The notes beneath the pieces are model-generated. The model did no database searches and had not been told where the DNA came from. It worked only from the letters and a program-made list of their open reading frames with translations. Below, piece by piece: positions 21,336 to 29,857 of a stretch of DNA of 64,000 bases (positions are counted from its first letter, which is position 1; every line of letters begins with the position of its first letter). Origin of the DNA: an uncultured Methanoregulaceae archaeon (GTDB lineage: Archaea; Halobacteriota; Methanomicrobia; Methanomicrobiales; Methanospirillaceae); contig CAVTTL010000001.1 of assembly GCA_963737635.1 (NCBI GenBank), positions 512,001 to 576,000 of the forward strand, given 5' to 3'. Position numbers and translations under genes: made by a program.

Positions 21336-24160
<2,825 letters not shown>

Positions 24161-24174
24161 GGTAACAACCACAA

Positions 24175-24245
24175 AGCCAGAACCCGGAATCGAACCGGGA
24201 TACGCTGATCTGCAGTCAGCCGCGTAGCCTTTCCGCCATTCTGGC
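24175..24245 (-). tRNA. tRNA-Cys(GCA), canonical archaeal type (G1-C72, G37, U73)
   Basis: GCCAGAA-TG-GCGGAAAGGCTACGC-G-GCTGA-CTGCAGA-TCAGC-GTAT-CCCGG-TTCGATT-CCGGG-TTCTGGC-T folds into a full cloverleaf. Confidence 0.95.
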
Positions 24246-24254
24246 ACTAGTCGT

Positions 24255-24266
24255 TCACAATTGTGA
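24255..24266. promoter_or_regulatory. Palindromic operator-like box TCACAATTGTGA upstream of tRNA-Cys/pscS
   Basis: Perfect 12-bp palindrome between a TATA-like element (~24272-24278) and the tRNA 5' end; recurs four more times in the locus. Confidence 0.7.
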
Positions 24267-24345: not shown

Positions 24346-24417
24346 AGCCAAGACCTGAATTCGAACTGGGCTGTAGCTGATCTGCAGTCAGCCGCGTAGC
24401 CACTCCGCCATCTTGGT
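24346..24417 (-). tRNA. Degenerate tRNA-Cys(GCA) (probable pseudo-tRNA)
   Basis: Anticodon arm identical to the first copy, but A1.C72 mismatch and T-stem CCCAG/TCAGG with two mismatches and U61. Confidence 0.8.
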
Positions 24418-24964: not shown

Positions 24965-24976
24965 TAACAATTGTGA
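24965..24976. promoter_or_regulatory. Operator-like box TAACAATTGTGA upstream of the wHTH regulator
   Basis: One mismatch to TCACAATTGTGA, about 28 nt before the ATG at 25004. Confidence 0.6.
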
Positions 24977-25003
24977 ATTCCCACCTATGTGTGGTGATCC
25001 ACT

Positions 25004-25295
25004 ATGAGGGATCGTTTTTGTCGATCATAACCTAGGCGCGAATGGGGGATCATTCGCACGGATTGGGCACCTGCCACCATCGGCAAAGCTCGTGTATAAA
25101 GTGCTGGAAACGAACGGTAAGCTAACGCAGAAGGATCTCATCCGTGAGACTGCACTTCCGTCACGTACTGTTCGGTACGCATTGAACAGGCTCAAGAACG
25201 AAAAGTTCTTGATCGAACATTATTACTTCATTGATGCGCGGCAAAGCCTGTACGGCCTGAACACCAAACCGCAGGAAGAGGTGGTTGCTGTATGA
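25004..25295 (+). CDS. Small winged-helix (MarR-like) transcription regulator (extra T in a homopolymer near 25015-25019)
   Basis: LPPSAKLVYKVLE...LTQKDLIRETALPSRTVRYALNRL...DARQSLY. GGTGA RBS precedes ATG 25004, which is in frame if one T is removed. Confidence 0.8.
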
Positions 25296-25782: not shown

Positions 25783-27043
25783 TTAGAGCGGCTTATCAGT
25801 GATAGGTATTCCGGCGGCAACCATACGCTCGCGGATCAGGTCCGCAATGTCAAACTGTTTTTTTGCCCGCAGTTCTGCACGTATATCCTGCAGGACACTG
25901 AGCGGCGCACTTGTCTCACGCAGGAAATTGATGCCGAGAATCTCCCCGTTCTCCCGCAATGCCTCAAGATCGCCGCTTGCTGCAAGTGCCTGGATTGCTG
26001 CCATTGCCATGGGCGTGTTGAGATCAGATTCCATAGCATCGACAAACGCTTTCCGTCCCTTCGTATCTGGCCCCTTATCTTTGGTTGCAATAGCCCGGAT
26101 ATGGTCGAGCCCCCGGGCGGCGTTAGCAAACCCCTCATTAGTTGCCTGGAGCGGCGACCGGTAATGGGAGAGAAGGATGAAGTACCGGAGTATATCTTTA
26201 TTCCATGTTTTGAGAGTATCCCGGATCGTGACAAAGTTCCCCAGAGACTTGGACATCTTTTCGCCTTTTAGCGTAAGAAATCCCGTGTGCAACCAGTATC
26301 TCACCATCGGATGCCTTCCTTCCAAGGACTCCATCTGGGCGATTTCCGCCTCGTGGTGAGGGAAAATCAGAATCTAATCCCCCGCCGTGGATATCGTACT
26401 GCTGGCCGAAGTATTTCTCGGAGATCGCTGTGTCCTCGATATGCCAGCCGGGCCGTCCCCTGCCCCAGGGGGATTCCCAGGTGTACTCCCCGAATTCACC
26501 GAGTTTCCAGAGCACAAAATCCAGAGGGTTGTGCTTAGTTGCGTCGGTTATGCGGCTGACACGCTTTACCCGTTCCTGCCCTGAAAGTTCCCCGTTATGC
26601 CCGAATGTGTCGAGATTGAAATAAACGCCGGTGTCCGTGATATACGCCACATCTCTTTCGACGAGCCGCTGTACCTGGTTGATGATCTCGGGGATATGAG
26701 TGGTAGCCCGGGCATAGTAACTGACAGCGTTGATCCCAAGGGCGTGCATATCCCGGAGGTATTCAGTCTCAAACTTCCTTGCAAGGACACTCTGGGGCAT
26801 GCCCTCCTCTTTTGCACGGTTGATAATCTTGTCGTCAACATCCGTGATATTCTGGAGATAGAATACTTCTTTGCCGGTCGACCGGAGGTACTTTGCAAGG
26901 ACGTCAAAGACAACATATGTCCTAGCATGACCCAGATGCGCGTAATCATAAACGGTCGGACCGCAGACAAAAAGCGCGACCCTGTCCGGGTTGAGAGTCA
27001 CAAGCGGTTCAACGGTTCTTGACAACGTATTATACAGTTCCAT
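25783..27043 (-). CDS. cysS: Class I cysteinyl-tRNA synthetase, compact, WHIED variant (one-base insertion near 26372)
   Basis: VCGPTVYDYAHLGHAR, NITDVDDKII, DFVLWK, GRPGWHIEDTA, DIHGGG-[LDL]-IFPHHEAE across the frameshift, KMSKSLGN and ADLIR anticodon helix. Confidence 0.92.
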
Positions 27044-27064
27044 AGCAGTGATCCTCTTTTTTGA

Positions 27065-27137
27065 CGCCGGCGGAGGGAGTCGAACCCCCAGACATTCGCT
27101 TTGCAGGCGAAGGCATTTACCGCTCTGCCACACCGGC
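27065..27137 (-). tRNA. Divergent tRNA-Cys(GCA) with A37 and an apparent G73
   Basis: GCCGGTG-TG-GCAGAGCGGTAAATGC-C-TTCGC-CTGCAAA-GCGAA-TGTCT-GGGGG-TTCGACT-CCCTC-CGCCGGC-G; intact cloverleaf 21 nt upstream of cysS. Confidence 0.92.
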
Positions 27138-27184
27138 TTTTTTCCAAGGACTTGTGTTTCGGATTATTGAACATTTGTGTGAGT

Positions 27185-27196
27185 TCACAATTGTCA
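27185..27196. promoter_or_regulatory. Operator-like box TCACAATTGTCA upstream of tRNA-Cys/cysS
   Basis: One mismatch to TCACAATTGTGA, with the same GT 5' flank as the copies at 24255 and 24426. Confidence 0.65.
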
Positions 27197-27878: not shown

Positions 27879-27890
27879 TAACAATTGTGA
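27879..27890. promoter_or_regulatory. Operator-like box TAACAATTGTGA upstream of cysK
   Basis: TTAACAATTGTGAA is identical to the 24964 copy and lies about 16 nt downstream of TATAATAT (27856-27863). Confidence 0.7.
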
Positions 27891-27946
27891 ACTTCCGGAA
27901 CCTCGCCGGTTTGTGCGGGATGTTCCAGAGTCATAGAGGGAACAGT

Positions 27947-28879
27947 ATGACAAAAATTTATGAGAATATTACAGCAACAATAGGCAACACCCCGCTCGTA
28001 CGGCTGAACCGCCTTACCAGCGGTGCCGGCGCAACGGTGGTTGCCAAGCTTGAATCGTTCAACCCACTGAGCAGCGTCAAGGACCGGATCGGAGTTGCAA
28101 TGCTCGATGATGCTGAAAAGCGCGGGTTGATCAAAAAGGATACGATCATTCTCGAACCAACAAGCGGCAATACCGGGATTGCGCTTGCGTTCGTGAGTGC
28201 GGCCCGGGGATATAAACTCACGCTGGTGATGCCGGAGACCATGAGTGTCGAGCGGCGGAGACTGGCAAAAGCATTCGGTGCGGAGCTGGTGCTTACACCG
28301 GGTGCTGAAGGGATGAAAGGGGCTGTATCCAAGGCCGAGAAGATGGCAGCAGAGAACCCGAAGTACTTTTACATTCCCCAGCAGTTCAACAACCTGGCCA
28401 ACCCGGCAATCCACCGGAAGACTACTGCTGAAGAGATCTGGCGCGACACAGACGGAAAGGTCGATATTGTCATCGCCGGCGTGGGGACGGGAGGAACGAT
28501 CACTGGTATCGCAGACGTGATCAAGAAGAGAAAACCTTCGTTCCGTGCGATTGCCGTTGAACCCGATGCTTCCCCGGTACTCTCCGGAGGGTCTCCCGGT
28601 CCTCACCGCATCCAGGGAATCGGCGCAGGTTTTGTCCCGGAGGTACTCAAGCGCGAGCTAGTGGACGAGATTATTCGTGTCAAAAATGAGGATGCCTTTG
28701 AAATTACGCGGAGACTGGCAAAAGAGGAAGGTATCCTTGCCGGGATCTCCAGCGGCGCAGCGACCTATGCAGCACTTGCGGTCGCAGCGCGTCCGGAAAA
28801 CAAGGGCAAGCTCATTGTCGTTATCCTGCCCGACACCGGGGAACGCTACTTAAGTATCCCCGACCTGTTTGTGGAATAA
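27947..28879 (+). CDS. cysK: Cysteine synthase A (O-acetylserine sulfhydrylase)
   Basis: [34 protein letters not shown] and PDTGERYLS motifs. Confidence 0.97.
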
Positions 28880-28890
28880 GTGAGACGGTC

Positions 28891-29857
28891 ATGATTTTTG
28901 ATCGTCTCCGGGAGGATATCCGAGCTGATTTTCTCCAAGGATCCTGCTGCCCGCTCCACTCTTGAGGTCCTCTTCTGTTACCCGGGGCTTCACGCCCTCT
29001 GGTTCCACCGCAGGGCCCACTGGCTCTGGATCCACGACCTGAAATTCTGGGCCCGGTTCGTTTCCCATATAGGCAGGTTCCTCACCGGGATTGAGATCCA
29101 TCCCGGTGCCATAATCGGGCGGCGGGTGGTCATCGACCATGGTATGGGGGTCGTTATCGGCGAGACAGCCGAGATTGGGGATGATGTCCTCATCTACATG
29201 GGTGTGGTGCTCGGCGGCACGGCGCTCGAGAATGTCAAGCGCCACCCGACTGTCGAGGACGGTGTGATCCTTGGATCCGGCGCTATCGTCCTTGGTCCCA
29301 TCCGTATCGGTAAGGGCGCAAAGGTCGGTGCCGGGTCAGTTGTAGTCCGGTCCGTCCCGCCCGGTGCGACGGTTGTCGGTGTTCCGGGCAGGATCGCCGG
29401 CCCGGAGCCTGGTTCCCCAGATGAGACGATCGAAGAGGTGATGCCCGACCCGATGCTCCGGGTGGTGAGCCGGCTGCTGGACCGGCAGAACCAGCTCGAG
29501 GAACGGCTCCGCACTTTCGAGCAGGCGCAGCCAGGCCCAATCTCCCCCGCAACCCGGCAGGAGATCGTCTGCGAGAACGAGATCCGAGAAGCGTTAAAGG
29601 AAGTGATTGATCCCGAGGTAGGTATTGATATCGTTGACCTCGGGCTCATCAAGGAGATACGGGTGAAAGGCACCAGCGTAGAGATCGACATGGTCCTTAC
29701 CTGCAAAGCCTGCCCCCTCTCCGATCACCTCTCCGGGCAGGTGCAGCGCAAGGCGTTCGGAGTCTGCGGCATTGAGCACGTTACCGTGAACGTGCTTGAC
29801 GAGCCGTGGAACTGGGACCGGTTTGTGAAGCAACGGGGAAACTTCAGACAGATCTGA
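28891..29857 (+). CDS. cysE: Serine O-acetyltransferase fused to a C-terminal DUF59 (SufT/MIP18-like) domain (indel near 28927)
   Basis: [10 protein letters not shown] then [24 protein letters not shown]; C-terminal [19 protein letters not shown]...LTCKACP...PW. Confidence 0.9.

Follow-up and report, generated by a model that had tools for sequence, protein, structure and literature searches.

The window analysed here is a stretch of 64,000 nt from a Methanoregula genome (contig CAVTTL010000001.1), and all feature coordinates are positions within it. On its minus strand a gene for a cysteine tRNA with the anticodon GCA lies directly ahead of cysS, the gene for cysteinyl-tRNA synthetase (CysRS). 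The discriminator base of this tRNA (position 73, N73) is G, in place of the U73 that is treated as a near-universal mark of cysteine tRNAs. U73 is a determinant common to CysRS and to SepRS, the first enzyme of the indirect route to Cys-tRNA, and is a major identity element (PMC8762117, PMC9976931). Judged from sequence, the locus holds a real and conserved tRNA-Cys(G73)–cysS cassette, with what reads as an ordinary cysteine-specific synthetase, and is probably insulated from SepRS. Its features are these:

27065..27137, minus strand: tRNA-Cys(GCA) with G73 and A37 (ARAGORN; RF00005, 62.1 bits; model R1, 83.9 bits)
27044..27064, minus strand: spacer of 21 nt from tRNA to cysS, with a purine-rich GAGGA stretch ahead of the ATG
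25783..27043, minus strand: cysS, cysteine--tRNA ligase, Asp-type (GRPGWHIEDTA), in two pieces scoring 274.1 and 112.1 bits against TIGR00435
26371, minus strand: spurious inserted base, the extra T in GAT[T]CTG, one letter left out in the contigs of all four sequencing runs

The G73 discriminator and the cysS reading frame

Transfer RNA genes were called with ARAGORN, with Rfam RF00005 (cut-off 29 bits) and with a purpose-built tRNA-Cys covariance model, R1. A preliminary description of this DNA had reported a well-folded tRNA(GCA) with A37 and G73 lying 21 nt ahead of cysS; ARAGORN, RF00005 and the cysS ATG at 27043 all agree with it. In the Rfam alignment the tRNA has A37, G73 and a canonical 7/5 cloverleaf with the acceptor stem GCCGGUG/CGCCGGC. 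None of the tRNA genes of this genome encodes CCA, so that the TCA trailing the G73 tRNA is 3′ trailer. In the spacer, GGATCAC...ATG is conserved across six aligned loci. A scan with a sigma-70-type promoter/terminator model called no terminator-like site inside the 21 nt, and was set aside, since its counts were at shuffle level and such a model is not designed for the promoters of archaea.

Is the G at position 73 genuine? The preliminary description had raised the worry that it is a spurious insertion, its deletion leaving U73, and had proposed to look at reads over 27060–27070 and at orthologs. The genus set used throughout comprises 108 Methanoregula genomes and yields 31 orthologous tRNA–cysS loci. 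The window's tRNA has the cysteine cloverleaf and GCA anticodon without the U73 that would be expected of it, and all 31 orthologs likewise end in ...CCGGC-G; none has U73. The base that follows is T in 27 of them, C in three and G in one, so that deletion of the G would not yield U73 everywhere. Pair 6:67 covaries (U.G in most of the 31, C-G in three, U-A in one) and thereby sets the acceptor-stem register. Position 27065 is also covered by Logan contigs from four public runs; these belong to four studies, possibly including that of the source sample, and none differs from the assembly there. Given the orthologs, the variable next base, the covariation and the agreement of the four runs, we conclude that G73 is real and not an assembly error.

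The spurious base sits instead in cysS. In the window two reading frames of this gene meet near 26383–26371, and since the extra base at 26371 is missing from the contigs of all four runs, the frameshift is an assembly error. It is this artefact that leaves each of the two pieces below the TIGR00435 cut-off. Five cysS orthologs read GGGLDLIFPHHEAEIAQ unbroken across the site. A profile search of the genome found no second cysS.

How does the gene fare in the rest of the genus? In 26 of the 31 genomes a single unbroken frame matches all or nearly all of the query. The five exceptions are G000 (the source genome), G100 and G102, which are assemblies of one to four contigs with split frames, the latter two of a single contig; G046, with two contig-end pieces; and G002, in which a stretch reads XX. 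The source genome also has its SepRS gene in two adjoining frames (TIGR00470, 406 and 247.4 bits; G000:C1:1128217-1129792, outside the window), probably through an indel error like that at 26371. Split cysS and split SepRS fit a pattern in which assemblies of long contigs contain indel errors, and the lesson for annotation is that the two splits in this assembly point to such errors and not to gene loss.

These split frames, in an assembly of 90% completeness and four contigs, would suit an explanation in which G73 is a spurious base or the cassette is a cysS pseudogene beside a relic tRNA. That explanation is hardly credible in view of an invariant G73 followed by three different bases, of run contigs that agree at 27065 and uniformly lack the extra base at 26371, and of the 26 genomes in which cysS runs through in one frame. 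Position 37 of the G73 tRNA does vary: eight of the 31 orthologs have G37. The earlier suggestion that A37 is an insulating feature of this tRNA finds no support in that observation.

The aspartate-type CysRS

What kind of synthetase does the cassette encode? An intact ortholog (P0003), 92% identical to the window CysRS over the first 220 residues, scores 420.8 bits against TIGR00435 (cut-off 340) and 371.6 bits against PF01406, and the class I motifs HLGH and KMSKS are present in the CysRS translations. The cassette also occurs in cultured M. formicica, to judge by a CysRS listed under that name at NCBI which is 87% identical to P0003. The Methanoregula enzyme matches chain 1li5_A of Escherichia coli CysRS with an E-value of 1.3e-93. 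In the HMMER alignment its C27, H229 and E233 fall on C28, H234 and E238 of the E. coli enzyme, and Asp204 of P0003 falls on Cys209. We take C28, C209, H234 and E238 to be the zinc ligands of E. coli CysRS; Asp is itself a usual zinc ligand. The preliminary description had correctly read GRPGWHIEDTA here, with Asp where canonical enzymes have a zinc-ligand Cys, as both the translation and the alignment confirm. By profile, motif and alignment the Methanoregula protein appears to be a genuine cysteine-specific class I CysRS.

How widespread is this aspartate? All 120 of 120 close homologs have it. Among 149 CysRS representatives of clusters at 50% identity, 37 have Asp at the position, 107 have Cys and five gave no match to the pattern. 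A DNA pattern for PGWHIEDTA, run against a collection of species genomes, matched at least 120 stretches, of which 80 loci were examined. These 80 come from Thermoplasmatota, Methanomassiliicoccales, Methanobrevibacter, Methanosphaera, Methanobacterium and Methanothrix, and further from Nitrososphaerota, DPANN archaea, Patescibacteria and two Streptomyces records. A FastTree of 94 rows was built from 72 of the 80 Asp-type loci, eight Methanoregula orthologs and 14 Cys-type sequences (every fifth locus listed); the eight Asp-type loci left out were shorter than 380 aa or not found. In this quick tree, whose Asp rows were picked by the motif itself, a branch of support 99 has the Asp-type rows together on one of its sides. 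Sister to the Methanoregula CysRS group, with support 93, is a Methanobacteriales group; the Methanoregula group itself sits on a long stem branch (0.85). On these surveys, Asp is a trait of a large CysRS clade of archaea and the candidate phyla radiation (CPR), and is not peculiar to Methanoregula. A literature search found no report of a natural Cys209-to-Asp variant of CysRS, subscription papers and supplements lying mostly outside its scope.

Does the aspartate alter what the enzyme charges? The preliminary description had suggested a possible change of discriminator or amino-acid specificity. On one such reading, loss of a zinc-ligand Cys would let CysRS load homocysteine, phosphoserine or another amino acid onto the G73 tRNA. 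The replacement of Cys209 is real, and metX and a gene for O-acetylhomoserine sulfhydrylase do lie nearby. Yet the motif is common (37 of 149 representatives, at least 120 stretches, every close homolog) and goes with U73, C73, A73 and G73 tRNAs alike. Asp-type CysRS is also present in seven genomes in which no SepRS was found (four Methanobacteriales, three Thermoplasmatota/Methanomassiliicoccales), and these must make their Cys-tRNA with it. In addition, the other three ligand positions are kept, Asp can itself bind zinc, P0003 passes the equivalog cut-off for cysS, and the genes that flank the cassette are those of CysK and CysE, not the methionine genes. We therefore regard altered amino-acid specificity as very unlikely. 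Because the genomes without a detected SepRS rely on it, the Asp-type enzyme is best seen as a normal variant of a working CysRS, with no sign in these sequences of homocysteine or phosphoserine charging.

Two side observations concern the enzyme family. The two Streptomyces records with PGWHIEDTA (L155 and L213) fall in the FastTree inside the otherwise archaeal and CPR Asp-type clade; the Streptomyces gene may be a transferred or a second CysRS-family gene. A genome of the same order and another family (G025, locus L007) encodes a distant CysRS-like protein, 34% identical, with GRPSWNVQD and HAGGIDNLYRHHDYN. Several of its zinc-site and catalytic-motif positions are altered, no tRNA lies nearby, and the protein may represent a paralog of different function.

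Linkage, discriminators and the two routes to Cys-tRNA

How closely are the tRNA and cysS tied together? Of the 108 genus genomes, the 31 that have the G73 tRNA are exactly the 31 that have cysS, and in each of the 31 loci the tRNA is adjacent to cysS on its upstream side. On this distribution the cassette passes on as one unit, and about one Methanoregula genome in three has it. The source genome also contains both enzymes of the indirect route, SepRS and SepCysS, and three more tRNA-Cys genes:

24175..24245, minus strand: tRNA-Cys(GCA) with U73 and G37 (ARAGORN; RF00005, 57.6 bits; model R1, 85.3 bits)
22796..24160, minus strand: SepCysS (NF006810, 628.1 bits, cut-off 301; TIGR02539, 384.3 bits, cut-off 365.25)
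24346..24417, minus strand: degenerate tRNA-Cys(GCA) with U73 and G37 (ARAGORN; RF00005, 31.4 bits; model R1, 65.2 bits)
G000:C1:591021-591092, outside the window: fourth tRNA-Cys, U73 (genome tRNA scan and model R1)

The first of these tRNAs ends 14 nt ahead of the SepCysS ATG (24160). Here too the preliminary description was right, both in its G37 and U73 and in its remark that the two tRNAs share little: 40 of 73 aligned positions are common to this tRNA and the G73 tRNA. Against the A73 tRNAs of Thermoplasmatota the G73 tRNA has 53–56 of 73 positions in common. That it stands nearer to these than to the U73 tRNA of its own genome suggests that tRNA and CysRS travelled together. In the tRNA at 24346–24417 the T stem is broken and A1·C72 is mismatched; relatives have intact copies nearby. 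As the differences are substitutions, it is likely to be a decaying duplicate rather than the product of an assembly indel.

The U73 tRNA is a regular companion of SepCysS, as the G73 tRNA is of cysS. Among the 30 best genus loci for the long form of SepCysS, 29 have at least one tRNA-Cys just upstream. The tRNA-Cys genes beside these 30 loci have U73 in 38 of 38 cases and G37 in 37 of 38, and the U73 tRNA stands ahead of long SepCysS in genomes with and without cysS alike. The idea that each route to Cys-tRNA has its own upstream tRNA is thus supported in the genus.

SepCysS itself occurs in the genus as two paralogs, ~60% identical: a long form of ~454 aa with an N-terminal extension of ~60 aa, and a short form of ~405 aa. 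In the source genome the long form is the gene at 22796–24160 and the short form lies at G000:C1:2195754-2196908; it is the long form that carries the U73 tRNA in front. Further ARAGORN calls in this genome, outside the window, are a 'tRNA-SeC(tca)', a peculiar tRNA-Gln(ttg) and a tRNA-His(atg) (G000:C1:623973-624068, 677379-677456 and 1924866-1924940). All have poor acceptor stems and are probably false positives.

Which discriminators accompany Asp-type CysRS elsewhere? A tRNA-Cys was present in 14 of the 80 Asp-type loci listed; in 13 of these it shares the strand of cysS and lies upstream of that gene, with its 3′ end 614–728 nt before the motif. The discriminator of the cysS-linked tRNA among these 80 loci is U73 in six (Methanobrevibacter, Methanosphaera, Methanobacteriota), C73 in three (Methanobacteriaceae, Methanobacterium), A73 in three (Methanomassiliicoccales, Thermoplasmata, Thermoplasmatota) and G73 in one (Methanoregula). 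Elsewhere in Asp-type genomes, the covariance model found U73 tRNA-Cys in Nitrososphaerota, a Thermoplasmatales archaeon, Woesearchaeota and Zestosphaera. When N73 is set against the motif, as the preliminary description had proposed, Asp goes with all four discriminators; N37 varies among the 31 Methanoregula orthologs. Left out of the N73 table were two CPR genomes, G142, G143 and one Micrarchaeota genome. Model R1 at E<=1e-11 found no tRNA-Cys in the two CPR genomes, G142 and G143, the top CPR matches being tRNA-Arg and tRNA-Phe; an 89-nt R1 match in the Micrarchaeota genome gave no tRNA structure with ARAGORN. In G141, a metagenome-assembled genome (MAG) titled Methanosaeta (Methanothrix, locus L356), the only tRNA-Cys detected is C73, together with an Asp-type CysRS. 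An alignment of 24 CysRS (three A73, three C73, six U73 and 12 of the 31 G73) was compared with N73. Position 210 was considered as a reader of the base, being K, E, Y and A or T in the G, C, U and A groups respectively, and was rejected because the E. coli enzyme, which goes with U73, also has K.

And how does N73 relate to SepRS? We compared ten other genomes with the tRNA–cysS arrangement (three C73, three A73, four U73), seeking SepRS with TIGR00470. It was found in all three C73 genomes, and in none of the three A73 genomes or the four U73 Methanobacteriales genomes. The three SepRS-bearing genomes (Methanobacteriaceae/Methanobacterium) have a C73 tRNA before cysS and a second tRNA-Cys, with U73, elsewhere. 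The four genomes of Methanobrevibacter, Methanosphaera and Methanobacteriota in which no SepRS was found have a single tRNA-Cys, with U73, before cysS. That C73 plus an extra U73 tRNA occurs only together with SepRS is what one would predict were a non-U73 discriminator to keep the direct route apart from the indirect one, which depends on U73.

What role, then, might the G73 tRNA play? We think it likely that tRNA-Cys(G73)–cysS is a direct-charging cassette, with a private tRNA shielded from the SepRS/SepCysS route. In such a scheme the tRNA, the 21-nt spacer and cysS would be transcribed together, and free cysteine from the neighbouring CysE and CysK would be charged by CysRS onto the private G73 tRNA. 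The ancestral indirect route, SepRS followed by SepCysS, would use the separate U73 tRNA-Cys genes, one of them directly before SepCysS. G73 most likely bars the private tRNA from the U73-requiring SepRS and SepCysS, SepRS being expected to reject it; recognition of U73 by SepCysS is stringent in vitro (PMC8762117). The discriminator preference of CysRS has probably shifted to G73, which it would favour over U73. Both routes would decode UGU and UGC as Cys, and would draw on different sulfur pools.

Much of this has been seen before. Mukai et al. 2022 (PMC8762117), who refer to Perona et al. 2018, give G73 tRNA-Cys for some Methanospirillum and Methanoregula species, C73 for some Methanobacterium, and A73 for Methanolobus and Methanocella. 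Passages of the same paper state that CysRS co-varies with G73 tRNA-Cys and suggest that the CysRS and SepRS systems are orthogonal. The core finding is, on those passages, already in print as a bioinformatic observation, and insulation of the cysS pair from SepRS, which the preliminary description had put forward, is a plausible reading of the sequences that Mukai et al. share. A literature search on CysRS and tRNA-Cys in these two genera gave that paper and otherwise only an unrelated one. What goes beyond the passages is the linkage in 31 of 31 loci, the co-occurrence in 31 of 108 genomes, the variable N37, the clade-wide Asp, the relation of SepRS to N73 and the corrected frameshift. They list A73 only for Methanolobus and Methanocella; we find it also in MAGs of Methanomassiliicoccales, Thermoplasmata and Thermoplasmatota.

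Several points weigh against insulation. The exact co-occurrence of tRNA and cysS could reflect mere physical linkage, with one deletion removing both. SepCysS accepts G73 Sep-tRNA(Sec) in vivo (PMC8762117), so that G73 is no absolute block downstream of SepRS. A literature search found no charging experiment on the G73 tRNA/CysRS pair, and a search of public sequencing runs listed no RNA run that covers the stretch. The genomes compared are mostly incomplete MAGs, and relatives among them are not independent observations. In three of these MAGs (G124–G126; loci L139, L148 and L207; Methanomassiliicoccales/Thermoplasmata/Thermoplasmatota) an A73 tRNA-Cys lies directly before an Asp-type cysS, and at the sensitivity used neither another tRNA-Cys nor SepRS was found. 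In these MAGs A73 may be the only discriminator used for cysteine, and this CysRS clade could thus change N73 without any pressure towards insulation. Finally, no residue in the 24-sequence CysRS alignment tracks N73 beyond phylogeny, and the CysRS of the Asp-type clade may simply tolerate any N73.

Taken to its end, this last thought gives an alternative in which Asp-type CysRS is lax at position 73 and the linked N73 drifts among U, C, A and G. The Methanoregula enzyme would then charge both G73 and U73 tRNAs, and insulation would be at most one-way, keeping SepRS off G73, or absent. All four discriminators do occur on cysS-linked tRNAs within the one clade, which, like the solitary A73 tRNAs and the want of a tracking residue, speaks for drift; and in Methanosarcina the two enzymes have tRNAs in common or differ only in the isoacceptors they prefer (PMC8762117). 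Were CysRS able to use the U73 tRNAs, however, the cell could do without the private tRNA; yet 31 of 31 cysS loci retain it, with G73 invariant. Within Methanobacteriales, moreover, a non-U73 tRNA accompanied by a second, U73 tRNA is confined to the three SepRS genomes. The long stem of the Methanoregula CysRS (0.85) is compatible with adaptation, a weak pointer in the same direction. We consider lax recognition unlikely, and prefer a direct-charging cassette with a shielded tRNA. Of the interpretation first offered for this locus, the upstream tRNA for each route and the plausible insulation thus stand; a role for A37, and Asp as a sign of altered specificity, are not supported.

Sulfur genes, operator-like sites and known systems

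In what surroundings does the cassette lie? Its neighbours on the minus strand are genes for ThiI, for MetX with CBS domains, for O-acetylhomoserine sulfhydrylase, and for SepCysS with its tRNAs. Other features of this sulfur amino-acid island are:

27887..28879, plus strand: CysK, cysteine synthase A (TIGR01139, 464.9 bits, cut-off 350.95), divergent from the tRNA–cysS cassette
28898..29857, plus strand: CysE, serine O-acetyltransferase (TIGR01172, 230.5 bits, cut-off 210.65)
27183..27194, minus strand: operator-like 12-mer ACAATTGTGAAC, 46–57 nt upstream of the G73 tRNA
24253-24264, minus strand: further copy of the 12-mer, ahead of tRNA-Cys/SepCysS
27881-27892, plus strand: further copy of the 12-mer, at the start of cysK
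24967-24978, plus strand: copy of the 12-mer with one mismatch
25092-25295, plus strand: open reading frame (ORF) of 67 aa with a winged helix, between SepCysS and cysS (HTH_24, E 5.2e-6)

Of the 31 genus genomes with cysS, 30 have a CysK ortholog (E<=1e-90), against 14 of the 77 others. CysK, CysE and the cassette fit a putative module that makes free cysteine and then charges it directly. CysE carries at its C-terminus a fused FeS_assembly_P/SUF-associated domain (PF01883, residues 227–299), an apparently unusual fusion that would link cysteine synthesis to Fe-S assembly.

The 12-mer, with its palindromic core TCACAATTGTGA, has four matches in the window against 0.26 expected. Its exact word occurs only three times in the 2.46-Mb genome, each time in the window. 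In the genus, 30 of 30 loci with the long SepCysS have a site with one mismatch at most; where positions were compared, for instance at the window's own locus, it lies ~10 nt ahead of the U73 tRNA. No site was found within ~100 nt before the G73 tRNA in the 25 of 25 other cysS loci. The element looks like the operator of a sulfur or cysteine regulon, going by its placement. A palindrome copy lies ~115 nt upstream of the 67-aa winged-helix ORF, which has no NCBIfam match and whose product is a candidate regulator of the palindrome sites. A double palindrome site also occurs at G000:C1:434936 and 434963, between a cysteine-desulfurase-like gene and PP-loop/FdhD genes.

A wider reading would join these elements into two fully insulated Cys-tRNA channels set apart by the discriminator base only, one sulfur-responsive operator TCACAATTGTGA and an Asp-type clade that has re-set tRNA-Cys identity. 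Channel one would be a CysRS that has switched to G73, rejects U73 and is fed by the cysteine of CysE and CysK. Channel two would be SepRS/SepCysS, working on U73 tRNAs only. Both would answer to the palindrome, which in this genome stands before tRNA–cysS, tRNA–SepCysS and cysK, beside the small winged-helix gene. We hold this joint reading tentatively, as possible rather than probable. Were it true, whole archaeal lineages would break the rule of a universal U73 in cysteine tRNAs, and nature would already offer orthogonal CysRS/tRNA pairs.

Why does the narrower finding matter? A natural CysRS/tRNA pair with G73, in a cell whose SepRS route depends on U73, would be a clear example of how two charging systems for one amino acid can be kept apart, and shows how discriminator identity can be re-set in evolution. 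Should the pair prove orthogonal, engineered coding of cysteine or selenocysteine could usefully start from it and from its relatives with C73 and A73.

How does the cassette compare with known systems? With E. coli CysRS (1li5, 1u0b) the Methanoregula enzyme and its tRNA share the class I fold, the HIGH and KMSKS motifs, the GCA anticodon and three of the four zinc-ligand positions. They differ in having Asp for Cys209, G73 for U73 and a tRNA gene fused into the putative operon. In length the Methanoregula enzyme falls ~40 residues short of the E. coli protein (419 against 461), most of the difference lying between helical bundle and C-terminal domain. Non-standard bacterial tRNA-Cys of the selC* type, reportedly described by Mukai et al. 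in 2016, are likewise said to be encoded with a CysRS paralog of their own. Those tRNAs reportedly have 8/4 or 9/3 acceptor/T arms, unlike the normal 7/5 cloverleaf of the Methanoregula G73 tRNA.

The nearest counterpart is the Methanoregula/Methanospirillum G73 system of PMC8762117, with the same genus, the same discriminator and the same idea of orthogonality. In Methanosarcina mazei (work of Hauenstein and Perona from 2008, as given in PMC8762117 and PMC9976931) SepRS and CysRS also coexist and prefer different isoacceptors. There, however, all the isoacceptors are U73 and the preference works through the tRNA core and m1G37, whereas in Methanoregula the difference lies at the discriminator. 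The E. coli CysRS/tRNA pair, for its part, has been evolved by hand in recent work (PMC13449415). Closest in logic are the two PylRS/tRNA-Pyl pairs whose mutual orthogonality through G73 and A73 was shown biochemically (PMC9071458; PMC9499178): one organism, two charging systems and one codon set, split by the discriminator base. The PylRS pairs involve paralogous synthetases, while in Methanoregula the two enzymes, CysRS of class I and SepRS of class II, are unrelated, and the division of labour between them is a predicted one.

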